Origin: Lachnospiraceae bacterium
GTDB lineage: Bacteria; Bacillota; Clostridia; Lachnospirales; Lachnospiraceae
Assembly (NCBI GenBank): GCA_024697595.1
Contig: JAILFK010000008.1
Location: 23,972-87,971 of the forward strand
Length of the DNA stretch: 64,000 nucleotides
Direction of reading: 5' to 3'
Shown here piece after piece: positions 6,577-55,190 of the stretch. A program made the translations under genes and the position numbers. Within the stretch, counting starts at the first letter, position 1; each line of letters opens with the position of its first letter. The notes below the pieces were generated by a model, which was given only the letters and a program-made list of their open reading frames with translations, ran no database searches and had not been told where the DNA came from.

Positions 6577-7161
6577 TTATCGATGCTCTGCCAAATACTC
6601 CTTGTAGCTCCAATTAACTTTATCTTTATCAGACAAAATTAAATCCGCCTCTGTCATTCCCTCTGGAAGTGGCCACTCTACTCCAATATCAGGGTCGTTG
6701 TACATAAGACCGCCCTCATCATTTGGATGATAAAAATCTGTAACCTTGTAGCAGAACTCTGCATAATCAGATAACACTAAAAATCCGTGTGCAAAATTCT
6801 TAGGAATAAAGAACTGCTTCTTGTTGTCCTCCGATAACTTAATTCCAAACCATTTACCAAAAGTTTCAGAACCTTCACGAAGGTCAACTGCCACATCATA
6901 CACTTCACCCTTGATTACGCGCACAAGCTTATCCTGTGGATAATTAAGCTGAAAATGAAGTCCACGAAGGACACCTTTTTTTGAAGCGGACTGATTGTCC
7001 TGCACGAACTCACAATCAATACCTGCCGCCTTAAAATCATTATAATTATATGACTCCATAAAGTATCCGCGCTCATCTCCGAATACTGATGGTTCAATAA
7101 CCTTTAATCCTTTTATTCCGTTGCAATCTTCTGTAACTTCAAGTTTTCCGTATTTTGCCAT
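6577..7161 (-). CDS. rmlC: dTDP-4-dehydrorhamnose 3,5-epimerase
   Basis: FGDERGYFMESYN, RGLHFQ, KLVRVIKGEVYDVAVDLR and HGFLVLSD, the cupin RmlC signature. Confidence 0.92.
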   Translation of the reverse strand: MAKYGKLEVTEDCNGIKGLKVIEPSVFGDERGYFMESYNYNDFKAAGIDCEFVQDNQSASKKGVLRGLHFQLNYPQDKLVRVIKGEVYDVAVDLREGSETFGKWFGIKLSEDNKKQFFIPKNFAHGFLVLSDYAEFCYKVTDFYHPNDEGGLMYNDPDIGVEWPLPEGMTEADLILSDKDKVNWSYKEYLAEHR

Positions 7162-7275: not shown

Positions 7276-8130
7276 CTAATTTAAAATTTTTTCCATCGCC
7301 TGTTGTTTAACTGTCAAATCTTCTTTTGACCAATTAGATGCATTGAGATAATGAATCCAATTATCATCAATCACTTCATACATAGACATCTGAGGCGAAC
7401 CTGCCAAATCCTCAATCTGCACTCTCTCTGTTACAGCAAACGTATATCCCAAATATTCATCTGTAGATATAACTGGATAATATAAACTATAGTAATTACC
7501 CGCTCCTGTATCACCGCATTTCTTCATTGGCATAAAATCAACATTTTCAATGTTGTCCAAATACTCTCTTCTATAAAAGCACATTCCTGCCCATAAATAT
7601 ATACAACACATTTTACCATATTTCGTGGAAGGCATTGTTCTTTGCACTCCCCAAAACTTCTGCTTCTCTAATTTTTTCAAAACGCTATCAGGTTTCACAA
7701 GAAAAATATCGTGATCAATAAATCCAATAACCTGTGAGTTCCTTTTTGCAAAATAGTTATAATACACCCAATTCATAGCCGCTCCATTAGAATGGGATGG
7801 AATTGCATATGATCCATTATATGGGTTTGGAGGTAATTTAACATATATCACATCTTTCTTTACGCAGATTTCTTTGATCTTATCTGACGCTTCTTGGGTA
7901 TATGAATTGTCAAAGACAACATATTGATAATTATCCACCAAATTCTTGCGCAACTTATCAATTTGAATATCAATTACATCCGGATTTTCAAAAGCAATTG
8001 TAGCCAAATCAAGTTCTATATCGCTATTGTTGTTTACATAATCTGAAACATCACAAACAGCCGCCTCGCTCATATATTGTTTTTTATAAATAGCATCTTT
8101 TTTTCTATGCTCAACAAAGGATTTTATCAT
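7276..8130 (-). CDS. Hypothetical protein, possibly a GT-A-fold glycosyltransferase (DHD acidic motif)
   Basis: 284 aa. The pattern VVFDNSYTQEASDKIKEI...GFIDHDIFLVKP resembles a nucleotide-sugar-binding GT-A core, but I recognise no family. Confidence 0.35.
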   Translation of the reverse strand: MIKSFVEHRKKDAIYKKQYMSEAAVCDVSDYVNNNSDIELDLATIAFENPDVIDIQIDKLRKNLVDNYQYVVFDNSYTQEASDKIKEICVKKDVIYVKLPPNPYNGSYAIPSHSNGAAMNWVYYNYFAKRNSQVIGFIDHDIFLVKPDSVLKKLEKQKFWGVQRTMPSTKYGKMCCIYLWAGMCFYRREYLDNIENVDFMPMKKCGDTGAGNYYSLYYPVISTDEYLGYTFAVTERVQIEDLAGSPQMSMYEVIDDNWIHYLNASNWSKEDLTVKQQAMEKILN

Positions 8131-8143
8131 ATTAGTTTACCTT

Positions 8144-9670
8144 TTACTTTGCCAATTTATTTCTTAAAACATTAAATATGGTGCCAACCAATTTCTTAAA
8201 AGAAACATTTCTATACCATAACACCACTACTATAACATTAGCTAATACACATACTATAATCAATCTCACCACTATAGAAAGAACGCCTGTCAGATTCAGC
8301 ATATTAGACACGCCAAAGCAGGTCGCCCCCATAATCACAGTCGTGGCAAAAAACAGTATGTAATACAAATAATAGTTTCCTGTACCACTGTGAAATGCAT
8401 TCTTAAAAAATGTTCTTGGCTCAATCCAAAACGCAACTGCATAATTGCTGACAATTGTTCCTATAATTACACCCAATATACCAAATTTTTGAACTAATAT
8501 TACAGAAACCACCAAATTTAATATAGCCTCTATATATGCCCTATGCACATCCTGTATCAAAATCCCATATGCAACTTTAAATACATTGCATGTCTGTCTC
8601 ATTCCAGTAGCATAAAAATTAATACAGATGGCAATTAGAACTTCATCCGATAAAACAAATTGCTGCCCAAATGCCAACTCAATAAACGGATTCGATAGCA
8701 CTAGCAAAGCTGTCGTAGCAAAACTAAACAACCAAAAATTAGCAAAATAAACCATATTAAATGTTTCTCTTTGTTGTTTTTCATCTGTCTCAACAGCCAT
8801 ATTTCCAACGCTCGACATGATCGCCTGAAAAGCTTGATTCATAAACATATTAACTGTGGATGTAATCAATACGTAGTTGGAATAAAATCCAGCTTCGACC
8901 AATCCTACAAATTTTGATATAACTATATTATCTGTTGAATTAAGTACCACATTTCCCAGATTATGACCTATCGCAGCAAACACATTTACCTTGATAGTCT
9001 TTTTCGTCTCTGCTGGCAGATCATACTTCTCTCTAGACTTCAATATCGGGTAATGTTTATTAGCAATATGAGAAATTCTCAAGTTCTCTACCACAGTTGT
9101 TACAACTTGAATGGCATAAAACAAAATGAAATTTTTTGTGGTCAAAAGTACTCCCGCCTGTACTACATACATCGCAATATAACACAATGCATGATTGGCC
9201 GAATACATATAATAGTTTTGATTGGCACTTAAATATACGCATTTATATGAATAAAAATATGAAAACGCTGCATTGGCCACATACATGATAAATATAAAAT
9301 ATATATGATCCACATTGGCTGGCATTTCCTTGATTATCAAATGCAAAAATGGTGTGATTAGCAATCCCACCACCAGCATAAAACTTCCCACACCTATATA
9401 GAAGTTTCTATAAAGACGCATAAGTGCCTTGATCTGGCGCTCATCATTTTCTGCTATTGGTTTATATAAACTAAATGTAATAGCAGGGCCAACTCCTAAT
9501 TCTGCCAAGGATAGCACCGATATTACATTGCCAAATAATCCATTTAATCCCAAGTATTCTTCGGACAAGGTCCTCGCTAGAATGACTCGAATTACGAACC
9601 CACCCAAAGATACAAATATAAGTCCAAGCCATGTTACAAGGACATTTTTTATTGATTTTTCCGATCGCAT
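8144..9670 (-). CDS. wzx: Wzx-type (MOP superfamily) polysaccharide/lipid-linked sugar flippase
   Basis: 508 aa with about 12-14 TM helices and the N-terminus KNVLVTWLGLIFVSLGGFVIRVILARTLSEEYLGLNGLF, typical of Polysacc_synt flippases. Confidence 0.78.
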   Translation of the reverse strand: MRSEKSIKNVLVTWLGLIFVSLGGFVIRVILARTLSEEYLGLNGLFGNVISVLSLAELGVGPAITFSLYKPIAENDERQIKALMRLYRNFYIGVGSFMLVVGLLITPFLHLIIKEMPANVDHIYFIFIMYVANAAFSYFYSYKCVYLSANQNYYMYSANHALCYIAMYVVQAGVLLTTKNFILFYAIQVVTTVVENLRISHIANKHYPILKSREKYDLPAETKKTIKVNVFAAIGHNLGNVVLNSTDNIVISKFVGLVEAGFYSNYVLITSTVNMFMNQAFQAIMSSVGNMAVETDEKQQRETFNMVYFANFWLFSFATTALLVLSNPFIELAFGQQFVLSDEVLIAICINFYATGMRQTCNVFKVAYGILIQDVHRAYIEAILNLVVSVILVQKFGILGVIIGTIVSNYAVAFWIEPRTFFKNAFHSGTGNYYLYYILFFATTVIMGATCFGVSNMLNLTGVLSIVVRLIIVCVLANVIVVVLWYRNVSFKKLVGTIFNVLRNKLAK

Positions 9671-9672
9671 TA

Positions 9673-10533
9673 CTATCTTACCTTTTTAAATAAAATTAAA
9701 TCCTTTATATAAAAAATTATAGGTAGTACTCTACCACCAATTCCTCTTACAATAATGTATATTTCTTGCATCAAAGACGCATTATCATTTTCATACAACC
9801 CTTTAAATGTCTTAGCATCAAATTTCGCCTGTTTACTCACCGCAGATAGCTTCTTCTCATAATTCACTTCCATTCCACAGGGATAACAATATTCTGGTCC
9901 CAACACTCTAACATCGTCTCTACCAATAATATAATGATTCAACTGAGACTCATCATGCCATCTGGCAATTACATTCTTCTTCAAATCCTCTTTTATGGCA
10001 TAATCTAACTTACGGCTCATCTCTAAAAATGCTTTGGATGTTCCACCATTCATTGCGCCAATCACATATGTTTTCCCACAATTATATGGCACATAAGCAC
10101 TAGATTTTTTATTTCTGTCAAATGGTGCATATATTCCGCTTTTACCCGCATATCCAGGATGAACTGTCACAAAGAGCTGTTCTCCATTGTCCTCTCTAGG
10201 CAAAAACTCCTCTGGTGAAATCTCGTCATCACACACCATATTAGAATTGGAAAACATCAAGTAATCCATCTTAGATAACTCTTCTTCAATAGAAAGAAAA
10301 GTATCAAATCTAAACAATGTAATTAGAGGCCATGGTAAAGTCTTTAAAAAATATTTATGAATATTTACATTTTCACCCTCTGCATAAATCTCTGCAGCAT
10401 CAGTAAATACATAATAATGTCTTTCAAAATCCGTCAAAAATTTTGACTCGAAAGTCTTATAGAAATCTTCCCAAAATGCAATATATGGCCCTGTCGCAAT
10501 ATATAATATTCCAATTGTTTTCTTATCACTCAT
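9673..10533 (-). CDS. CAZy family 6 glycosyltransferase (histo-blood-group A/B transferase family), bacterial NxN type
   Basis: By-eye alignment to mammalian GT6. [11 protein letters not shown] matches DFLFCMDVDQV, with NSN replacing DVD. [22 protein letters not shown] matches [34 protein letters not shown] matches AQWHDESHLNKY. LGPEYCY matches LSPEYCW. Confidence 0.85.
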   Translation of the reverse strand: [286 protein letters not shown]

Positions 10534-10618
10534 TTTACAATCTCACCCTCATTGATATACCTTATTATACATTCTGCTATCTTATCCACATCGATATATC
10601 TTATTTATCACAGAAAAT

Positions 10619-11194
10619 CTACACTCGCACCCACTCATGCTTATCAAAATCATATGTCTTGATAACCTTTGCAGGACTTCCAACAGCGATACTATAATCA
10701 GGAATATCATGTGTAACCACACTGTTTGCACCGATTATACATTTCTTACCAATGGTAACTCCAGGCATCACTGTAACTTTCTCGCCCAACCAACAACCAG
10801 ACTTTATATGAACTGGCGCAGCTGTAAGTGGTTGATCCATATATGGAATATCGCTCTCTGGATCCATACCATGATTTTCAGTTGTAATAAGCACATTTGA
10901 TGCTATAAGCACTTCGTCCTCTATCACAACGTCTGCCGCCAACAATATAGTCAAATTGTAAGTCATATAACTGTGATTCCCTATCACAAGCTGCGGTGTA
11001 GGTTGGCCTTCAATACTATAAGACCATATCCTAGAATTTTGCAAAATCTGAGAGTTGTCACCCATAGATATATAATCTCTACTATCTGAAATACAAGGAT
11101 ACCATATTCTTGAATTGGCACCGATTTTATTAAATTTTTTTCGATAAAATCCAGTCCTTCCATAGACATGGTTTTTTAATAAATCTATTATCAT
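10619..11194 (-). CDS. Hexapeptide-repeat (left-handed beta-helix) O-acetyltransferase
   Basis: C-terminal GCWLGEKVTVMPGVTIGKKCIIGANSVVTHDIPDYSIAVGSPAKVIK, typical of the MAT/LacA-like family. Confidence 0.85.
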   Translation of the reverse strand: MIIDLLKNHVYGRTGFYRKKFNKIGANSRIWYPCISDSRDYISMGDNSQILQNSRIWSYSIEGQPTPQLVIGNHSYMTYNLTILLAADVVIEDEVLIASNVLITTENHGMDPESDIPYMDQPLTAAPVHIKSGCWLGEKVTVMPGVTIGKKCIIGANSVVTHDIPDYSIAVGSPAKVIKTYDFDKHEWVRV

Positions 11195-11243
11195 AGTTCC
11201 TTTTTATATCATCTAAACGATTTAACAATTACCTCAACTAACA

Positions 11244-12086
11244 TTAACTATTTTTACTATGTCTCTTGTCCATAATAACACTGATTTTAAAATCATTTCC
11301 CCATATCGCTTTAGAATCATATGGTCTATCTGGAAACTGTCCATATAACAATTTGATATTATATCCATTTTCCTCGATAAATTTTTCTACTCTCTGGGCA
11401 AGAGTCATAGGTCTTCCAGAACAGCAATTTATCACGCCAAGGACATCTTCTTGCTCCGCAACTGCAGCCACCTGCTCACAGAACAATTCATAATCTGTAA
11501 AATCAAATTGATTTAATCCCATTGTAAATGGAAACTCAGTCTTGCCATCCTTAGCAGCCTGGGCAATTTTGGCAAATATTGAACTACCATTTGTACTGGT
11601 TCCCACGATATAAAATCCTCTAATCCACTGGAACTTCACATCATTATCTTTGCACAACAACTCTGTCGCCTCGCGAAGAGCATTTTTGCTAATTCCATAC
11701 AAACTCTGAGGTTTACATGGAGTATCCTCATTGATTGAACCCTCATAAAAACCGATCTCATGCATGGAGCCCAAGGCACATATTCTATCAACACCAGCTG
11801 TTGCCATCTTGGTTAAAAACGAATAATGAGCCGGCAAATCATTGATATGGTTTAAAGATGCATGTTTGAATCCATCACGCCAAGCCATATGAAGCACCAC
11901 ATCTGGCTTTCCAAAATAATCATATGGATCATCCAATTCGAACAAATTAGCTTCCTTGATATCCGCTCTTGAATCAATAAAATTAGTTCTAATATCTGTG
12001 GCAACAACATCTACTCCATCATCAAGCAGTTGTTTAACCACACCCGTTCCTAAATATCCATTTGCTCCTGTAACTAATACTTTCAT
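11244..12086 (-). CDS. NAD-dependent sugar epimerase/reductase (extended SDR)
   Basis: MKVLVTGANGYLGTGVV Rossmann motif and YGISK (YxxxK). Confidence 0.8.
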   Translation of the reverse strand: MKVLVTGANGYLGTGVVKQLLDDGVDVVATDIRTNFIDSRADIKEANLFELDDPYDYFGKPDVVLHMAWRDGFKHASLNHINDLPAHYSFLTKMATAGVDRICALGSMHEIGFYEGSINEDTPCKPQSLYGISKNALREATELLCKDNDVKFQWIRGFYIVGTSTNGSSIFAKIAQAAKDGKTEFPFTMGLNQFDFTDYELFCEQVAAVAEQEDVLGVINCCSGRPMTLAQRVEKFIEENGYNIKLLYGQFPDRPYDSKAIWGNDFKISVIMDKRHSKNS

Positions 12087-12139
12087 GCTTTACCTCGTTT
12101 AATCACGCCAAAAACAACATTTGACTATTCATATGCAAA

Positions 12140-13060
12140 TCACGCCTCAATCGGCGTCCAATTATCCATATATAAATCGCATGGCACATCTATACCATAC
12201 CACTTAGATGGAGTTATAACTATTTTATCTTCATTCTCAGATAAATACTGCGCCCACCATCCAAATGAAGTATTTCCAATTATAAAATGCTTACATTGAG
12301 CCATAACTCCCAGTGATATCTGAACTGGAAAATCTCTGCTTTGCATCACGCATTCATATTTATCAGCGTCTATAAAATGTTCTAACACATAAGGCACATT
12401 ATCTGAACAAATAAAAAATACTGGATTTTCCACATTGTCTGTAATGTACTTGATTGCCTTTTCCCAATACTCTCTTGTACACACATCATACATCTCGCTT
12501 CCCACATTATGTTCCACTTTGATGCTTATGCATACCGAGTTACTATTTTGAATTTTTTCCAAACCAGGATATCCCGACTGATTCACCTTGTCTTTTATGG
12601 AAAATATTTCTCGAATCTCTTTTTGATTTTCTTCAAAATATTTTGGCGACTGAAAGAATCCACTCATATAGACATCTTTATCAACACTATCAGGCAATGG
12701 AATATATCCATTTTCACATCTTATCAATCCTTGCTCTAAAAACTTCTCTCTATGTCTCAATTCATAATCATATCTAGAACGAAAACTACTATATAACCTA
12801 GTGCCTATGTGTCTGTGATTAAATATTGCCATTTCAGCTTTACGCAAATTTGCTTTTTTCAACACACTTCTATCATCCACATAAGAACTAACTCCAGGAA
12901 GCTCATAATAAGGTAGTGAATCTTCCCAATTTAACTTTTTCACTCTACTATCATCAATAACTATCTCAGGATGATCCGGACTATTTAATTGTAAAGTTCT
13001 TGCAGCAGCGTACATGAAAATCTGATTTCCAATTCTGCCCTCTAACTCTAGATATATCAT
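12140..13060 (-). CDS. GT11-like glycosyltransferase (alpha-1,2-fucosyltransferase family) with a non-canonical motif I
   Basis: N-terminal EGRIGNQIFMYAAAR and C-terminal FIIGNTSFGWWAQYL match GT11 hallmarks. The expected HxRRGD motif is replaced by CISIKVEHNV. Confidence 0.65.
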   Translation of the reverse strand: MIYLELEGRIGNQIFMYAAARTLQLNSPDHPEIVIDDSRVKKLNWEDSLPYYELPGVSSYVDDRSVLKKANLRKAEMAIFNHRHIGTRLYSSFRSRYDYELRHREKFLEQGLIRCENGYIPLPDSVDKDVYMSGFFQSPKYFEENQKEIREIFSIKDKVNQSGYPGLEKIQNSNSVCISIKVEHNVGSEMYDVCTREYWEKAIKYITDNVENPVFFICSDNVPYVLEHFIDADKYECVMQSRDFPVQISLGVMAQCKHFIIGNTSFGWWAQYLSENEDKIVITPSKWYGIDVPCDLYMDNWTPIEA

Positions 13061-13133: not shown

Positions 13134-14102
13134 TCATTTTACTTCTTCTGTGTCGCTGAATATTCGTCTAGTGGCCATATTGTTTTTAAATGTATCTATA
13201 AACAACTTACGAAACATAGAACTAAAGAGAAATCCTGTAATCACAATTCCAATACATGAAACTAATTTATGCTCATATAAATTTCCAGCAAATTTATCCA
13301 ACTTTAACTTTGCCTTGTCAAACTTCTCCTTGATTGTTTCATTATCCTCATCAAACTTACTGTTTAAATCATCAATATCTATTTCCAATAAATCTCTTCC
13401 CGATTTATAACATTCTCTTAGCAAATCCGCTTTTTCAAATTGCTCATAGGCGTAGGACACAGATATACCTGAGGATCTAACCCTATACAATAATAGCACA
13501 TCTTCTAATCTGCCACAGTTAAACCCCGCTTGAATCGCTCTGAGCACAAAATCGTAGTCCTCGCAATATTTTACATCTCTGTATCCTTCTAATCTATCAT
13601 ACACCTCTTTTTTCAAAAGCCATGTTGGGTGTGTGGCAAAATTGCCATATTTCTCACACTCATTAAATCTCTCCCCAATCAATGTAGGTACTGATGGGCC
13701 ATTCTCTCTCTTTTCATCACGTATAAAATCTATACCACACATGACAAAATCCAAATTATATTTCTCAAGAAATTGCATCTCTTTAGCAATTCTATCTTTA
13801 TCACAGATATCGTCCGCATCCATTCGAGCCACATATTTTTCTTCAACCACAGAAATCAATTTGTTTAGAGCTCCAACAAGCCCCATATTCTGCTCATTTA
13901 TGATAAATGTAATTCGTAAATCCGCGGCGGCATATTCTTCTATTATTTTTTTCAACTGGTTATTTTCTGGATTGTCCAGCAAAATATATATATGCAAATT
14001 CTCATAGGTCTGCTGCAATACCGACTCTATACTTTTCCGAATCCATTCTTCTTTTTCATTGTAGGCAGTCATTATTACCGCCACTTTATTATTATCATTC
14101 AT
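13134..14102 (-). CDS. Family 2 glycosyltransferase
   Basis: VAVIMTAYNEKEEWIRKSIESVLQQTYENLHIYILLDNPEN and ARMDADD. Paralogous to 15229-16146. Confidence 0.88.
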   Translation of the reverse strand: MNDNNKVAVIMTAYNEKEEWIRKSIESVLQQTYENLHIYILLDNPENNQLKKIIEEYAAADLRITFIINEQNMGLVGALNKLISVVEEKYVARMDADDICDKDRIAKEMQFLEKYNLDFVMCGIDFIRDEKRENGPSVPTLIGERFNECEKYGNFATHPTWLLKKEVYDRLEGYRDVKYCEDYDFVLRAIQAGFNCGRLEDVLLLYRVRSSGISVSYAYEQFEKADLLRECYKSGRDLLEIDIDDLNSKFDEDNETIKEKFDKAKLKLDKFAGNLYEHKLVSCIGIVITGFLFSSMFRKLFIDTFKNNMATRRIFSDTEEVK

Positions 14103-14109
14103 AACCTTA

Positions 14110-15180
14110 TTATTTTTTTATCTCAATATATTTATCTAGGGTATCTCTGGCCACTTTATCCCAACGAAAGTTCTCATCCACATACTCCCTTGCATTATGA
14201 GATTTTGCCGCCAACATATCTTTTTGTTTATAAACTTGTAAAATGGTATCTGCTATCTCTGAAGCCTCACACTCGCACACCCATCCACAATCATTTTCCA
14301 AAACATCTCTATCAAAACTTGTACCAGGAGATACAATAACAGGTAAGCCAATAGCCATTGCATCCAAGATTCCCATAGGCATCCCCTCAGATCTAGATGG
14401 CTGTATAAAAGCATCTGCATCCAACATAACTTTCGCTTTGTCCTCACCAAATACTCCATCATGGATTTTCATCACATCATTTAAATTAGCTTCCGCCACC
14501 ATCTGCTCAAGCTTAGCTCTATCGTCGCCTTCTTTAGGTCCGTAAATTCCTACAGATATCTGCTTACTTCGCATTTCATCTGCGATGGATTTCGCCGCCT
14601 CAACCAAGGCATCTAATCCTTTGTAAAATAGATTTATTCTTCCGATAAAAATCAACCTCAAACCAGGTTCATCTGCATTGAAATTACACTTATATGTCTC
14701 CGGCACACTGACACCATTTGGTGAAATAAATGCATTGGCATTCCACTTTCTCGAAGTCGAGCGCTCTTTATCTGAGAGAAATTGAATTCCTGCCGCCTGT
14801 GAAATATATTTTTTCGCCCAGAGGAAATTCACCACGATCTTGGCATATTTCAACTGTGTCTGTGCCCCATCAGTAAGTCCACCATGAGGAATCACAACAT
14901 ACGGCACGCCGGCTTTGTAAGCTGCCTTGGCCATCTTAAAAAATGGCATATAATATATCTCATGAAACACTATCAAATCTGTCTTTTGCAAAACATTTTG
15001 AAAATCTGCAGCCTTCACAGGTTTCACTTTTTCATTCCAATCTAGGATTTCATCCTTAATATGAAGCACCAAAATATCTGCCATATCTGCCTTAGCCTGC
15101 TCATTTACATGATTTAGCACCGCCACAGTGGCACCATTGGACATCTTGTTTTCTACACCACATATGTGCAATATGGTCAT
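14110..15180 (-). CDS. GT4 (GT-B, glycosyl transferases group 1) glycosyltransferase
   Basis: SRSEGMPMGILDAMAIGLPVIVSP, the E-x7-E region of GT4. Confidence 0.88.
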   Translation of the reverse strand: MTILHICGVENKMSNGATVAVLNHVNEQAKADMADILVLHIKDEILDWNEKVKPVKAADFQNVLQKTDLIVFHEIYYMPFFKMAKAAYKAGVPYVVIPHGGLTDGAQTQLKYAKIVVNFLWAKKYISQAAGIQFLSDKERSTSRKWNANAFISPNGVSVPETYKCNFNADEPGLRLIFIGRINLFYKGLDALVEAAKSIADEMRSKQISVGIYGPKEGDDRAKLEQMVAEANLNDVMKIHDGVFGEDKAKVMLDADAFIQPSRSEGMPMGILDAMAIGLPVIVSPGTSFDRDVLENDCGWVCECEASEIADTILQVYKQKDMLAAKSHNAREYVDENFRWDKVARDTLDKYIEIKK

Positions 15181-15228
15181 CTCAAAATCTCCTACAACAT
15201 CTATTCTTCATTTTCGCAGAACTTGTAT

Positions 15229-16146
15229 CTACAACATCTGTTTTACATATTTAAACAACTTGTCTCTATAACATCTAGAACCAAAAAATGACTTCAACAG
15301 CAAAACTAATCCTGAAAATAGTTTTCCTGTCTTCACCGCAGCCAACCCTTCTGTGAAATTATTGGCAGCTGTGTTGTACTTCACTTCCTCTGTCTCGTCA
15401 AAATTTGCATCCATATATTTATCAAATTCCAACTCACGTCCTAAAACATATTTCTCCTGACAATATTTCATAGACAAATATTGTTTATATAAATTAGAAC
15501 GAGATATGCTTACTGTAGTCATTCTATAACTCAAAAGCATCTCGTCCAAATTTCCAAATTTCCAATCTCCAAGTCTGGCTTTTAAGAGCAACTCATAATC
15601 CTCACAATAAGGAGTACTCTCATAGCCTCCAAGTGCAATATACAAATCTCTCTTAACCATCCAACCTGGATGAGGCACGCAGTTATTGATACACATTTTT
15701 TTTCTAATAACCGCATCTGTAGCTGGAAGTTTTTCAAGTTTTTGAATAACATTATCCTGCTCATCAATTACATTTACCCCACAGGATGTGAGATCTATAT
15801 TATTTTCTTCCATAAAATGTAACTGTTTTTCTAAACGCGTTGGTTCAGATTTATCATCCGCATCCATTCGGGCGATATATCTACCCTTGGCAATATCAAT
15901 CAACTTATTTAAAGTCGCTGCCAATCCCATATTTTCTTCATTGATATAGATACTAATCCTATCGTCCTCATCGGCATAACTTCTCAGAATTTCTATCAAG
16001 CTAGCATTATTGGGATTATCCACTCCAATCAAGAACTCAAAGTCTCTGTAGGTCTGATTCAATATAGACTCTACAGCCACACGCAAGAAATCTTCCTCTT
16101 CATTGTATGTGGACATAATCACAGATATTATTGGCTGTTCACTCAT
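15229..16146 (-). CDS. Family 2 glycosyltransferase
   Basis: ISVIMSTYNEEEDFLRVAVESILNQTYRDFEFLIGVDNPNN and ARMDADD. Confidence 0.88.
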   Translation of the reverse strand: MSEQPIISVIMSTYNEEEDFLRVAVESILNQTYRDFEFLIGVDNPNNASLIEILRSYADEDDRISIYINEENMGLAATLNKLIDIAKGRYIARMDADDKSEPTRLEKQLHFMEENNIDLTSCGVNVIDEQDNVIQKLEKLPATDAVIRKKMCINNCVPHPGWMVKRDLYIALGGYESTPYCEDYELLLKARLGDWKFGNLDEMLLSYRMTTVSISRSNLYKQYLSMKYCQEKYVLGRELEFDKYMDANFDETEEVKYNTAANNFTEGLAAVKTGKLFSGLVLLLKSFFGSRCYRDKLFKYVKQML

Positions 16147-37462: not shown

Positions 37463-37497
37463 AATTTTATTTTGTAAAATTCTGATTAATCCATCCA
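37463..37497 (-). repeat. Copy 2 of the ~36-nt direct repeat, overlapping the last codons of the hydrolase gene
   Basis: See 35902-35938. Confidence 0.7.
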
Positions 37498-38475
37498 TCT
37501 AATCTGTTGCTCTGTTATAAGTTCATATGTTATAACTTCTTCGCCTTCCAAATCAACACGGTGCATATCTACTGCAGTAATTTGACTATTACCATAAGTA
37601 GTATAGTAATAAATCCCCTTATCTGTATTGCAGCAACTACTATAGATTGTATATTCACAAACTTTCGTTCCATCTTCTGATTCACCAAGTCTACAACAAC
37701 CTCGCTGTTGTTCCACTGAACCAAGTATCTTGAAGAATTGTGATACACTAGAGGCCTCATCATCATTAGCAATTGAATTCATTTTAGTAAAGGTTGCTTT
37801 TACAAATCTCGATGCGCTAGATAAGTCTCCCGGAATACCAAATCCTCCCATTCCACGACTATATGGTTCTATCTCAACTTCCGTCATCAATTTATTCTTA
37901 GGAACTTCCGCCGAACAATTCATATAATCCATTAGATGCGTCATATGATAATCAAAGGTAGGGTTGTTGGTCATTACTCCAACTGGATTATCATAAATAT
38001 GGGCTCCATTAACAGTCTGTTCAAATACAATACATCGATTCGCATCAGCAATCATCCAATGTAAACTAGATGCCGGTAACTGTTCACTAAAAGAATCATT
38101 GGTAATATTTATATTTTCTAATAATTCTCTAGCCTCAACCACAGTCTTGCACTTTGATAACAACCAAGGTGTCAATTCAAATGACGCAATATTATACTTT
38201 CCTTCTACAAAATCAGTATAATATGCATTCCCCTGAAAATTCAATCCCGCAGCACTTAAACCATACTCGTTAGTAGCCTCATAATACAGCGGATATCCGT
38301 TCTGAACATAAGCCATACCAATTATAGCAGAATATGTCGATGTACTTTCTACATGCCTAAAATCAAACTTTTTATTCCTAGGTGTTATAGTAACCGTCTC
38401 ATGATATGAATATTCTAAATCTAAATTTCGACCGAAATAATGATCCTTTGTCTTATAAGAAATTGATGTGCACAT
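37486..38475 (-). CDS. Choloylglycine hydrolase family Ntn-hydrolase (bile salt hydrolase / penicillin V acylase type)
   Basis: MCTSISYKTKDHYFGRNLD (Cys2, Arg, Asp), MTNNP (Asn) and SSASRF (Arg). All five catalytic positions of the family are present. Confidence 0.88.
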   Translation of the reverse strand: MCTSISYKTKDHYFGRNLDLEYSYHETVTITPRNKKFDFRHVESTSTYSAIIGMAYVQNGYPLYYEATNEYGLSAAGLNFQGNAYYTDFVEGKYNIASFELTPWLLSKCKTVVEARELLENINITNDSFSEQLPASSLHWMIADANRCIVFEQTVNGAHIYDNPVGVMTNNPTFDYHMTHLMDYMNCSAEVPKNKLMTEVEIEPYSRGMGGFGIPGDLSSASRFVKATFTKMNSIANDDEASSVSQFFKILGSVEQQRGCCRLGESEDGTKVCEYTIYSSCCNTDKGIYYYTTYGNSQITAVDMHRVDLEGEEVITYELITEQQIRWMD

Positions 38476-42035: not shown

Positions 42036-43103
42036 TTAATTATCACAAAACTCTTTTATTTGTGCTTGCATTACATCAACATAATTTCCACCATGAAGAT
42101 AAGCATCAGACCACTCTACAATCTTTTTCATTGTAGCCTCCACATTCCATCTCGGTTCCCAACCAAACTTATTCTTCAATTTAGAACAATCCAGCTTCAA
42201 AAAATTAGCTTCATGTGGCCCACCATCATATTTATTAATCCACTTTATATTATCACCAGTCACGTCATTCCATGTATTACAGAATAATGTAACTAAATCT
42301 CCTGTAGTCCAACAATCTGTATCATTTGGTCCAACATTATAACTACCTGCATATTGTTCCTTGTTCTCATATTGAGCAGCTGCAATCATTAAATACGCAA
42401 CTACAGGTTCAAGCACATGCTCATATGGGCGTGTAGAAAATGGATTTCTAACAATAATATCATCGCCCGCTTCAGCTGCTCTAATACAATCTGGTATAAT
42501 TCTATCAGTAGCAAAATCTCCTCCTCCAATAACATTACCTGCTCTAGCTGTAGAAACTGCAACAGGTAAATCATTAAAAAATGAATTAATATAACTACTT
42601 GTCACTAATTCAGAGCACGATTTAGAATTTGAATATGGGTCATATCCATTAAGTTCTTCATTCTCTCTATATCCCCATACCCACTCTTTATTTAAATATA
42701 CCTTATCAGTCGTAACATTAACAAATGATTTTACACATGAATTCTGTCTAACAGCTTCACATATATTCACTGTTCCCATTACATTTGTCTCATATGTACC
42801 TACAGGATCCTTATAAGACTCTCTTACCAAAGGCTGAGCCGCCATATGTATTACAATATCAGGTTGTGTTTCATTAAACACTTTCAAAAGATGTTTAAGA
42901 TCACGAACATCTCCAACTATACTATTCATTTTGTTTTCTAATCCACACATTTCAAAAAGAGATGGTTTCGTAGGTGGTTCAAGAGCATAGCCTATAACAT
43001 CTGCTCCAGCCATGATAAGAAGTTGGCACATCCACGAGCCTTTAAATCCTGTATGACCTGTAACTAAAACTTTTTTGTTTTTATAAAATGATAAATCTAA
43101 CAT
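42036..43103 (-). CDS. rfbG: CDP-glucose 4,6-dehydratase
   Basis: FYKNKKVLVTGHTGFKGSWM..., YSNSKSC (YxxxK), and a length and C-terminus typical of RfbG/DdhB. Confidence 0.88.
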   Translation of the reverse strand: MLDLSFYKNKKVLVTGHTGFKGSWMCQLLIMAGADVIGYALEPPTKPSLFEMCGLENKMNSIVGDVRDLKHLLKVFNETQPDIVIHMAAQPLVRESYKDPVGTYETNVMGTVNICEAVRQNSCVKSFVNVTTDKVYLNKEWVWGYRENEELNGYDPYSNSKSCSELVTSSYINSFFNDLPVAVSTARAGNVIGGGDFATDRIIPDCIRAAEAGDDIIVRNPFSTRPYEHVLEPVVAYLMIAAAQYENKEQYAGSYNVGPNDTDCWTTGDLVTLFCNTWNDVTGDNIKWINKYDGGPHEANFLKLDCSKLKNKFGWEPRWNVEATMKKIVEWSDAYLHGGNYVDVMQAQIKEFCDN

Positions 43104-52941: not shown

Positions 52942-54325
52942 TTCCCGTCAAAGCCTTTTCTTCTCCGTCTTCTAGTCCCTCTGTGCTGTCTTTAATAAAA
53001 ATAACTTTGATAGTTAATAGAATCAATTTGATATCTAATAAAATCGACCCTCTCTCAACATATATCATATCAAGTTTTAACTTGTCGAGATTGGTAGTAT
53101 TGTATTTACCATACACCTGAGCATAACCGGTAAGTCCAGCCTTGACCCTAGTTCTATATGCAAACTCTGGCACTTCTTTTACGTACTCAGCTATAATCTC
53201 CGGCCTTTCTGGTCTCGGTCCAACTATAGACATGTCCCCTTTTAACACATTAAAAAACTGTGGGAGTTCATCTATTCTCGTTGCCCTAATAACTTTTCCG
53301 ACCGAAGTTATACGATCATCATTTTCTCCTGCCAGACGAGCCTTACCATCACTTTCAGCATTCACCACCATACTTCTAAACTTCATGATATAAAACTCTC
53401 TATCATCAATGGTAGCTCGTTTTTGCTTGTATATAACAGGTCCGCCATCATTTGCTTTTATAGCTACAGTCGCAACTAGCATAATCGGACTAGAAATAAT
53501 AATTCCCACCAATGATATCACTATATCCATGGTTCTCTTTACAAACCTCTGACTACTTGTAAGTCCTAGATTCCTGCACAGATAAAGCGGCGTATCAAAC
53601 AGATGCAATTCATCGGCATTTTTTACCAATATGTCTGATATTTTCGGAGTAAAATACACTCTCTTCCTTTGATTGTATGCCTCTTTTAAAATGTGATTTT
53701 TATTATCAGTTTCAATATCATTTAACACTATCGCATCATAATTTCTCATTGTTTCGGCAATCACTTCTATAGAGTTATCTTCCGAAATCCTATCCGCAAT
53801 AATATATTTATCCTTGCGGCCATTCATTTTCTTAGCCAAATTATTAGTATATTTCCCATATATCATGAGCATCTTGAGCGGTGGAAATATACTTCTATAT
53901 AATTTGGTCAGAATATATGTCACAAAAAATATCGTAACAGATTGTATGATTATCAGCGCTATGAATGCAGGAATGATATATATCAACTTATCAATGTATC
54001 CCACCATTAAGAAATTTACCAAAAATATAATCCCATTGACTATCACCATGGATACCCACTGAGAAATTATAATGTGGGATATTCGATTCACTCCCATTTT
54101 AAAGCCATCAAAGGTCTTGATAACCATTATGCACAAAATAATGTAAATTACGTACACAAGAAGATTACCTTTGTTTTCAAAAGGTCTAAGCAACAAGATA
54201 TTAATCTTGTCACGCCACATATACGAATATTCAATTGTCAATAGCAATACAATCGCTACATTGCTAAAGCCTCTATACCAATACTTCGCATTATTTTTAT
54301 TCATCGATTTCTTATAACCCTTCAC
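52925..54325 (-). CDS. Polyprenyl-phosphate hexose-1-phosphate transferase (WbaP/CpsE-type initiating enzyme)
   Basis: C-terminal [22 protein letters not shown]...[10 protein letters not shown]...FYIMKFRSM...[41 protein letters not shown]. Four N-terminal TM helices. The start may be ATG 54304. Confidence 0.92.
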
Positions 54326-55190
54326 TTACATCAATCAAGTACTGACCATATGCAGTCTTCAAAAGTGGCTGAGCAAGTTTCACAAGTTGTTCCTTGTCAA
54401 TGAAACCACGTCTGAATGCAATTTCCTCAATACATGATACATACATACCCTGTCTCTTCTGGTATGTCTCTACGAAATTTGCAGCATTGAGAAGCATATC
54501 ATGGTTTCCTGTATCAAGCCATGCAAATCCTCGACCTAGAGTCTCCACATGTAGATTTCCTCTATTCAAATATTCATTATTAACCGCTGTAATCTCAAGC
54601 TCACCTCTAGCACTTGGCTTGATAGTCTTAGCGATTTGTACTACGTCATTATCATAGAAGTATAATCCTGGAACCGCATAATTACTCTTTGGATTCTCTG
54701 GTTTCTCTTCTATTGATATAGCGATACCATTTTCATCGAATTCAACAACGCCATACTCTCTAGGGTCTTTTACATAATATCCGAAAATTGTAGCTCCCGG
54801 CTCATTTTCTGTTCTAGTAGCCGCTTCCTTTAATATCTTAGAGAAAGTCATACCATAGAAGATATTATCTCCAAGTACAAGCGCAACAGAATCATCTCCT
54901 ATGAATTCCTCTCCTATGATAAACGCCTCAGCAAGTCCATTTGGCGCTTCTTGAACAGCATACTGTATATCCATGCCAAGCTGGCTTCCATCACCAAGCA
55001 GCTCCTCAAATACCGACAAGTCTCTAGGTGTAGAGATAATAAGCACCTCTCTAATACCTGCAAGCATAAGAGTAGACAATGGATAGTAAATCATCGGTTT
55101 ATCATACACCGGCATAATCTGCTTGCTAATCGCCTTAGTTAATGGATAAAGTCTAGTACCGGAACCTCCGGCTAATATAATTCCCTTCAT
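54312..55190 (-). CDS. rmlA: Glucose-1-phosphate thymidylyltransferase
   Basis: [55 protein letters not shown]... Confidence 0.95.

Follow-up and report, generated by a model that had tools for sequence, protein, structure and literature searches.

We analysed a stretch of 64,000 nucleotides from a Lachnospiraceae bacterium (assembly GCA_024697595.1, contig JAILFK010000008.1, positions 23,972 to 87,971 of the forward strand), in the following called the window, with a focus on a cassette of four genes that combines two glycosyltransferases (GT), one of family GT6 and one resembling family GT11, with an extended short-chain dehydrogenase/reductase (SDR) and an acetyltransferase. The source genome comprises 2.33 Mb on 73 contigs with a marker-gene completeness of 100%. 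All long open reading frames (ORFs) between 787 and 27054 of the window lie on the minus strand, and the cassette (in the order GT11-like gene, SDR, acetyltransferase, GT6) is embedded in a large wall-polysaccharide region that also encodes an ABC transporter with a Wzt C-terminal domain, a multidomain polymerising transferase, Glf, GT-C-like membrane proteins and an LCP ligase. A first-pass annotation had drawn attention to the two outer genes as possible makers of a histo-blood-group A/B-like epitope. Both ORFs are present on the minus strand at the positions listed below, together with all strings quoted from them, including a 16-residue GT6 string, NSN and VIGAMNGG. The two genes lying between them, which that reading had left out, are the SDR and the acetyltransferase, and these are the key to the cassette:

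12140..13060, minus strand: GT11-like glycosyltransferase of the SxKxEHN clade, 306 aa (PF01531)
11244..12086, minus strand: extended SDR, 280 aa (PF01370, E=4.5e-22)
10619..11194, minus strand: hexapeptide-repeat O-acetyltransferase, WbbJ/LacA/Maa-like (PF00132, E=5.5e-16)
9673..10533, minus strand: NxN-type GT6, 286 aa (PF03414)

Judged by its sequence, the ORF at 9673-10533 encodes a genuine GT6 enzyme, and one of the metal-independent NxN type, as had been proposed. It matches PF03414 (Glyco_transf_6) with E=7e-29 and 101 bits (cut-off 25), and NCBIfam NF041524 with 248.1 bits, just under the cut-off of 250. The closest solved structure is BoGT6a from Bacteroides ovatus (4ayj; E=1.2e-45 over residues 7-227), while the human A and B transferases, GTA and GTB, rank behind it at ~1e-24 in the PDB sequence search. 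The segment FSNSNMV aligns on FFNANLL of BoGT6a, which places NSN on N95-A-N97, the Asn-x-Asn that replaces Asp-x-Asp, and RWHDESQLN aligns with IWHDESLIN, the catalytic Glu being kept (E192 in BoGT6a, E303 in GTA). Equivalents of His122, Gly124, Lys128, Trp189 and Glu192 of BoGT6a are all retained; the roles of these residues have been described (PMC3516806, PMC3961637). At the positions of His122 and Gly124, alpha3GT, which acts on unfucosylated acceptors, carries Gln and Trp. By this comparison, the residues with which BoGT6a and the human enzymes GTA and GTB handle 2'-substituted galactose (Gal) acceptors are retained in the window enzyme, and a 2'-substituted Gal is thus its predicted acceptor. 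As to the donor, which the first-pass annotation had held could not be called, the residues equivalent to 266-268 are Ile-Gly-Ala, compared with Met-Gly-Ala in GTB, Leu-Gly-Gly in GTA and Ala-Gly-Gly at the 155/157 positions of BoGT6a. Since the second discriminating position is Ala, as in GTB, analogy with the human enzymes favours uridine diphosphate (UDP)-Gal. Towards the C-terminus, the Lys231 position of BoGT6a corresponds to K234 if the alignment is extended without gaps past the HMMER alignment end (residue 227), and by the same extension the Lys of a conserved FKG motif (K244) falls near Arg243; both placements are tentative. In BoGT6a, Lys231 and Arg243 are the C-terminal cationic residues that bind the diphosphate (PMC3961637). 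The last ~45 residues (9673-9815) form a hydrophobic and basic tail that reaches ~40 residues beyond the crystallised BoGT6a domain (1-246). This tail occurs in Firmicute relatives, where it is poorly conserved, and may be a membrane-association segment.

The protein encoded at 12140-13060 belongs to the GT11 family by its match to PF01531 (Glyco_transf_11; E=6.5e-23, 81.8 bits, cut-off 23.9), while neither an NCBIfam model nor an entry in the PDB sequence search matched it. The GT6 and GT11 families each have a single match in the whole genome and none in 14 control genomes, so that their pairing is not a matter of chance. The sequence SVCISIKVEHN aligns exactly on SxCxHxRRGDY of canonical GT11 proteins from related genomes, which bears out the earlier observation that CISIKVEHN stands in place of the conserved motif (H to S, R to K, R to V, G to E, D to H and Y to N). 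HxRRGD(Y), in the following called motif I, binds the diphosphate of GDP-fucose and is also found in GT23 and NodZ (GDP, guanosine diphosphate). The other GT11 motifs are retained, namely GxxGNQxFxYA, G[YF]FQS, CKHFIIGN(T/S)xFxWW and KIVxxPxxW. About 500 database proteins are related to the GT11-like protein; its clade shares 25-34% identity with canonical GT11 (the HxRRGD proteins of loci L072-L124), and within an alignment of 20 sequences (47-88% identity) C177, S179, K181, H184 and N185 do not vary. A maximum-likelihood tree of 80 GT11 sequences recovers the SxKxEHN group as monophyletic with support of 100/100; it is preceded by successive sister lineages with intermediate motifs (DFRMEDY in L067, SIRMGDY in L132), the next group out having [ST]xRRGDF in 4/5 members. 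These half-converted motifs look like a stepwise trajectory of donor switching. The L132 gene (483-1514) adjoins an acetyltransferase and an SDR resembling Tll, the 4-reductase introduced below, and the L067 gene (~9989-10900) adjoins an RmlC-like and an SDR-like gene.

An AlphaFold (AF2) model of the GT11-like protein shows a GT-B fold with a pLDDT of 90.8. The replaced motif sits at the end of strand 174-180 and in the following loop, the equivalent of which in the wider fucosyltransferase superfamily we take to be the donor diphosphate site. The nearest structures found with Foldseek are WaaC, NodZ, POFUT1, AtFUT1 and FUT8 at TM scores of 0.4-0.5. These are only distant GT-B relatives, so that the donor is not readable from the structure; their distance agrees with the published statement that no structure of a GT11 enzyme exists (PMC12595478). 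For comparison across genomes, one genome per species was scanned for relatives of the GT11-like protein, giving 23 loci of the clade and ~55 canonical loci. The clade loci are spread over Lachnospiraceae, Treponema, Bacteroidota, Pseudobutyrivibrio and Clostridium sp. CAG:253. One of them, L058 (~10001-10882, from a Bacteroides metagenome-assembled genome, MAG), reads CISIMVENG, without the Lys and His that are invariant elsewhere; no SDR occurs in its genome, and the gene may be a decaying copy. It could be asked whether the GT11-like protein transfers a sugar at all, or whether it is a pseudo-enzyme, a scaffold or a different catalyst, with GT6 working alone on unsubstituted Gal to give a Gal-alpha1,3-Gal epitope. 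Every residue of the donor motif has been replaced, L058 has lost even the Lys and His, and 10/23 clade loci lack a GT6, so that the two genes are not obligate partners. We nevertheless regard this explanation as improbable, because the remaining GT11 motifs are strongly conserved, the donor site has acquired a new invariant set of K, H and N, the GT-B model is confident, and GT6 carries a His and a Gly at the positions that are Gln and Trp in alpha3GT. The GT11-like protein is a GT11-fold enzyme that probably works in the manner of a fucosyltransferase, only with a different nucleotide sugar.

This view is strengthened by the search for a GDP-fucose supply. As noted in the first-pass annotation, neither gmd nor fcl is found in the window; extending the search to the whole genome recovered gmd but not fcl. 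A Gmd protein (515 bits) is encoded on contig C40, outside the window, the best candidate for the GDP-fucose synthase Fcl in the whole genome reaches 67 bits against a cut-off of 500, and a whole-genome search for the fucokinase/pyrophosphorylase Fkp (PF07959) gave no match. With no recognisable route to GDP-L-fucose, a genuine fucosylated H, A or B antigen is unlikely. Since motif I is absent and the host lacks the donor pathway, we do not file the GT11-like protein as a fucosyltransferase. The Gmd gene lies within C40:59776-64853 (locus L008, 5747-10884). Its neighbourhood includes a 325-aa SDR, a polyprenyl-phosphate GT2 resembling GtrB and large membrane proteins, which suggests a separate, non-fucose decoration with a GDP-6-deoxyhexose, e.g. 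D-rhamnose or 6-deoxy-D-talose. Among the compared genomes, many of which are metagenome-assembled, so that gene absences across them are soft, Fcl is found in 8/23 clade genomes and 17/23 genomes with a canonical GT11, a difference that stays clear all the same; Gmd, searched for in the clade genomes only, is found in 12/23.

The two families also occur together in Escherichia coli O86, where wbnI (GT6) and wbnK (GT11) give rise to a blood-group-B-like O antigen. With this classical architecture in mind, the GT11-like enzyme could be thought to use GDP-L-fucose to form Fuc-alpha1,2-Gal, which GT6 would then complete to a true A or B antigen. The residues for fucosylated acceptors in GT6 would suit such a product, and with Gmd present the SDR might in principle be an unrecognised GDP-fucose synthase. 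However, the GDP-fucose motif has lost both Arg, its His and its Asp to other residues in a conserved replacement, Fcl and Fkp are lacking from a genome that is 100% complete by markers, 11/23 clade genomes have no Gmd and 15/23 no Fcl, and the relatives of the SDR reside in rml operons, i.e. with genes for deoxythymidine diphosphate (dTDP) sugars, and not beside gmd. The fucose-containing epitope suggested at first is thus highly improbable; the accompanying suggestion of a different donor for the GT11-like enzyme is the one which the evidence supports, given the replaced motif I and the lack of a GDP-L-fucose route.

To find out which genes accompany the clade, we compared 10-kb flanks of the loci with the proteins of the window. 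The acetyltransferase is present in the flanks of 22/23 clade loci (46-65% identity) compared with 5 of ~55 canonical loci, where the matches are weak (24-36%). The SDR accompanies 18/23 clade loci (45-88% identity) and 0 of ~55 canonical ones, apart from one marginal match of 22% in L067, and a GT6 occurs in 13/23 clade loci (48-62% identity) versus 3 of ~55 canonical loci. Searched genome-wide, the SDR is found in 21/23 clade genomes and in 1/23 canonical-GT11 genomes (Fisher p=1.5e-9, calculated over related genomes that are not independent). The linkage is kept even though the gene order is shuffled: we find SDR-acetyltransferase-GT11-like-GT6, GT11-like-SDR-acetyltransferase-GT6, and acetyltransferase-GT11-like with the SDR kilobases away. 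The acetyltransferase, whose best NCBIfam match is WbbJ (115 bits, below cut-off), usually abuts the GT11-like gene in the clade loci; GT6 directly abuts it in 9 other loci, with a gap of 7-46 bp, and the same trio is present in 3 further loci obtained from an exact-protein look-up. Pairs of SDR and acetyltransferase also recur without any GT11 (L131, L138-L142, L145). Among cultured carriers, Candidatus Merdisoma sp. HCP28S3_D10 (L051) possesses the complete set of four genes; in Pseudobutyrivibrio sp. 49 (L061) the flank that was covered contains no GT6. RmlC is encoded in 22/23 and RmlD in 23/23 clade genomes. Taken as a whole, this linkage demonstrates that the four genes cooperate and rely on a dTDP-6-deoxyhexose pathway instead of GDP-fucose, with GT6 and the GT11-like enzyme probably acting in sequence. 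The locus L096 (a Lachnospiraceae MAG, genome G438) contains a GT6 of 50% identity adjoining a GT11 with the motif HIRLGDY, changed only by the loss of the second Arg. Because this GT11 is near-canonical, the GT6 type does partner with 2'-O-deoxyhexosylating enzymes. The L096 contig also carries a Tll-like SDR ~5 kb beyond the flank that was fetched, and fucose-type and talose-type systems may coexist or interconvert there.

What the SDR makes can be approached through its relatives. Its motifs GANGYLG (GxxGxxG) and YGISK (YxxxK) are invariant in 20 homologues, and a 65%-identical relative is labelled dTDP-6-deoxy-L-talose 4-dehydrogenase (NAD+) by JGI, the label being an automated annotation. 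In Fusicatenibacter saccharivorans (L130), a 68%-identical SDR heads an SDR-RmlA-RmlB-RmlC operon and occupies the usual slot of RmlD. To obtain homologues that had not been selected by their neighbours, we sampled 300 Lachnospiraceae genera; the SDR was found in 31 of them, and 34 flanks were fetched. Genes of the rml pathway are present in 15/34 flanks, including those of the window's close relatives L134 and L135 (RmlC only), and in ~8/34 the SDR lies within or directly beside them, in arrangements such as RmlA-SDR-RmlC, RmlA-SDR-RmlB, RmlB-SDR-RmlD and SDR-RmlC-RmlA-RmlB. Missing RmlD would have forced the SDR into the role of the reductase, but all 23 clade genomes have RmlD and this check is therefore uninformative in that respect. 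The canonical RmlD in 23/23 genomes does imply that the SDR is an additional enzyme of the dTDP-L-rhamnose pathway. Two such extra enzymes are known, the Tll-type 4-reductase and the WbiB/Tle-type 4-epimerase, both of which lead to dTDP-6-deoxy-L-talose (PMC11549994). In most polysaccharides 6-deoxy-L-talose is reported to be O-acetylated (PMC5033381), which matches the tight linkage to a WbbJ-like acetyltransferase. Two other roles for the SDR were considered and set aside. A GalE-type supply of UDP-Gal or UDP-N-acetylgalactosamine (UDP-GalNAc) for GT6 is rejected, as the SDR accompanies the GT11-like gene also where there is no GT6 (L046, L049, L052, L059, L062, L076). A joint action with Gmd towards GDP-6-deoxy-D-talose or GDP-fucose is disfavoured by the 11/23 clade genomes without Gmd and by the SDR relatives in rml operons.

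Some observations weigh against 6-deoxy-L-talose and against a switched donor. The closest relatives of the SDR (60-88% identity) mostly do not adjoin rml genes, embedding in such operons being commonest at 46-55% identity, and rml genes are near-universal in these taxa, so that their presence is weak evidence. In similarity searches the SDR groups with UDP-sugar 4-epimerases, RmlD and Rmd following only at ranks 27 and 33; all of these match it at ~20% identity, and neither sequence (PDB search) nor predicted fold (AF2, Foldseek) discriminates between 4-epimerases and 4-reductases or between nucleotide specificities. The SDR could instead reduce the product of RmlB, giving dTDP-D-fucose or dTDP-D-quinovose. 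Two Bacteroidota genomes of the clade lack the SDR. We know of no GT11 enzyme with a demonstrated non-GDP donor, and our literature search found no report of a GT11 enzyme using 6-deoxytalose, nor of 6-deoxy-L-talose in Lachnospiraceae. Finally, Thr134 of BoGT6a is replaced by Pro in all Firmicute GT6 proteins compared, and acceptor recognition by GT6 may therefore differ; as the Pro is also found in the L096 copy, next to a near-canonical GT11, the replacement is not specific to the new partner.

The main rival to 6-deoxy-L-talose follows from these points. It keeps the same architecture and assumes another sugar, for example a dTDP-activated one such as L-rhamnose, D-fucose or D-quinovose, or else a UDP-sugar provided by a 4-epimerase. 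Indeed, the SDR matches 4-epimerases and 4-reductases of many specificities equally well in fold and sequence, and the linkage reveals the dependence of the GT11-like enzyme on the SDR but not the stereoisomer that results. However, a second rhamnose-making enzyme would be redundant beside the RmlD of all 23 clade genomes, and operons of RmlA/B/C and SDR without RmlD (L130, L146, L148) place the SDR after RmlC and not after RmlB. The automated Tll label on the 65%-identical relative points in the same direction, as does the O-acetylation that is typical of 6-deoxy-L-talose and agrees with the linked acetyltransferase. Moreover, 6-deoxy-L-talose, the C2 epimer of L-fucose, is the dTDP-sugar closest to it in shape. 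We therefore consider another sugar unlikely, though by less of a stretch than either a fucosylated antigen or an inactive GT11-like protein.

Our preferred reading, to which we assign a probability of roughly 0.55, is that the product of the cassette is Gal-alpha1,3-[O-acetyl-6-deoxy-L-talose-alpha1,2]-Gal, in other words a fucose-free pseudo-B epitope. The observations on which it builds are the family assignments, the conserved replacement of motif I, the linkage of the genes, the lack of a GDP-fucose route and the occurrence of SDR relatives in rml operons. In the proposed model, RmlA, RmlB and RmlC would supply dTDP-4-keto-6-deoxy-L-mannose, and the SDR would turn this into dTDP-6-deoxy-L-talose by 4-reduction with a stereochemistry opposite to that of RmlD (Tll-type) or, alternatively, the SDR would act by 4-epimerisation of dTDP-L-rhamnose (Tle-type). 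The GT11-like enzyme, in this model a descendant of fucosyltransferases with HxRRGDY rebuilt as SxKxEHN, would then transfer 6-deoxy-L-talose in alpha-1,2 linkage to O2 of a Gal on a lipid-linked oligosaccharide, the WbbJ-like enzyme would O-acetylate the 6-deoxy-L-talose, and the metal-independent GT6 would add an alpha-1,3-Gal onto the same Gal, after which Wzx would flip the unit so that it can be joined to the wall polymer. What we infer here are the sugar's identity, the positions of the linkages, the target of acetylation, the donor of GT6 and the order of the steps. A wider claim is more tentative and, in our estimation, falls somewhat short of even odds: the whole GT11 clade (~500 sequences from gut and rumen Lachnospiraceae, Treponema and some Bacteroidota) may have switched its donor from GDP-L-fucose to dTDP-(O-acetyl)-6-deoxy-L-talose while rebuilding HxRRGD as SxKxEHN, and, where an NxN GT6 is present, commensals may display fucose-free mimics of the H and B antigens.

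The surroundings of the cassette contain further genes that may serve the same pathway:

15229..16146, minus strand: GT2 glycosyltransferase (Pfam match)
14110..15180, minus strand: GT4 glycosyltransferase (Pfam match)
13134..14102, minus strand: GT2 glycosyltransferase (Pfam match)
8144..9670, minus strand: Wzx-like (MOP family) flippase (PF01943, E=3.7e-8; NF041503)
7276..8130, minus strand: 284-aa protein (no Pfam or NCBIfam match)
6577..7161, minus strand: RmlC, dTDP-4-dehydrorhamnose 3,5-epimerase (PF00908, E=1.6e-71)
54312..55190, minus strand: RmlA, glucose-1-phosphate thymidylyltransferase (TIGR01207, 491 bits; PF00483)

The three upstream glycosyltransferases (13134-16146) presumably build the stem of the acceptor oligosaccharide; their order GT2, GT4, GT2 is identical in the closest relatives, L045 and L046. 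In these two loci the position of the Wzx-like flippase is likewise unchanged, and it is likely to export the lipid-linked oligosaccharide of the cassette. Two other cassettes, L060 and L066, contain homologues of the 284-aa protein (53-54% identity), located downstream of GT6 at a distance of a few kb, and this protein may be an unclassified transferase of the same side chain. RmlC, located just past the cassette and ~4 kb downstream, is the sole rmlC-like match seen in the genome; it is also found within the flanks of L045, L046 and L054. RmlA catalyses the opening reaction of the route to dTDP-sugars; RmlB (476 bits) and RmlD are both encoded on contig C47. A window ORF at 42036-43103 was considered as RmlB and rejected, since it reaches only 119 bits compared with the 476 bits of the C47 protein. 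In the middle of the wall-polysaccharide region we also found a gene for a choloylglycine (bile-salt) hydrolase (37486-38475, minus strand; PF02275, E=1e-90), which fits a gut habitat.

Natural anti-A and anti-B antibodies are presumed to be elicited by gut bacteria with ABO-like glycans, and the bacterial ABO-like examples that we know of are Gram-negative and contain fucose. The cassette predicts a widespread variant in Gram-positive commensals in which the fucose arm is exchanged for its C2 epimer, an exchange that would alter recognition by antibodies, lectins and fucosidases. If this is true, fucose-free mimics of H and B could shape natural anti-glycan antibodies, or could evade fucose-specific lectins, fucosidases and phages. 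The clade would also offer a natural experiment in how the diphosphate-binding motif of a GT-B fucosyltransferase is adapted to another nucleotide sugar. Confirmation would make it the first non-fucose activity in CAZy family GT11, for which none is known to us, and would provide a catalyst for 2'-(6-deoxytalosyl) glycans; if the assignment of the SDR is right, 6-deoxy-L-talose may be common in wall polymers of Lachnospiraceae.

Compared with known systems, the cassette combines familiar parts with unfamiliar ones. The window GT6 shares with BoGT6a, which makes the A antigen (PDB 4AYJ/4AYL), the NxN in place of DxD, the Glu of WHDES and the residues His122, Gly124 and Trp189, but it differs in having Ile/Ala instead of Ala/Gly at 155/157, predicting Gal and not GalNAc, in the Pro at Thr134, in a tail that is ~40 aa longer, in a neighbour that is not a canonical fucosyltransferase, and in its Gram-positive Lachnospiraceae host. 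The NxN GT6 clade was described from Gram-negative bacteria (PMC3961637), and the window enzyme is a new member of this known clade in Gram-positive hosts. Like E. coli O86, the window has a GT6 and a GT11-family gene in one polysaccharide locus, with a predicted branched trisaccharide on Gal, whereas its genome has no GDP-fucose pathway, its GT11 member lacks HxRRGD, and an SDR and an acetyltransferase are co-inherited with this GT11 member. With canonical GT11 enzymes (FutC, WbsJ, WbgL; represented here by L072-L124) the clade agrees in Pfam family, in GT-B fold and in the motifs near both termini; it differs in motif I, which is SxKxEHN, and in its linkage to a Tll-like SDR and an O-acetyltransferase instead of gmd/fcl. 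The SDR in turn resembles Tll of Aggregatibacter actinomycetemcomitans serotype c (EC 1.1.1.339), WbiB and Tle in being an extended SDR found in or adjoining rmlA/B/C and in its association with O-acetylation, a likeness drawn from context and an automated label. The known 6-deoxytalosyltransferases that our literature search found, such as the mycobacterial Gtf1, are not GT11 enzymes.

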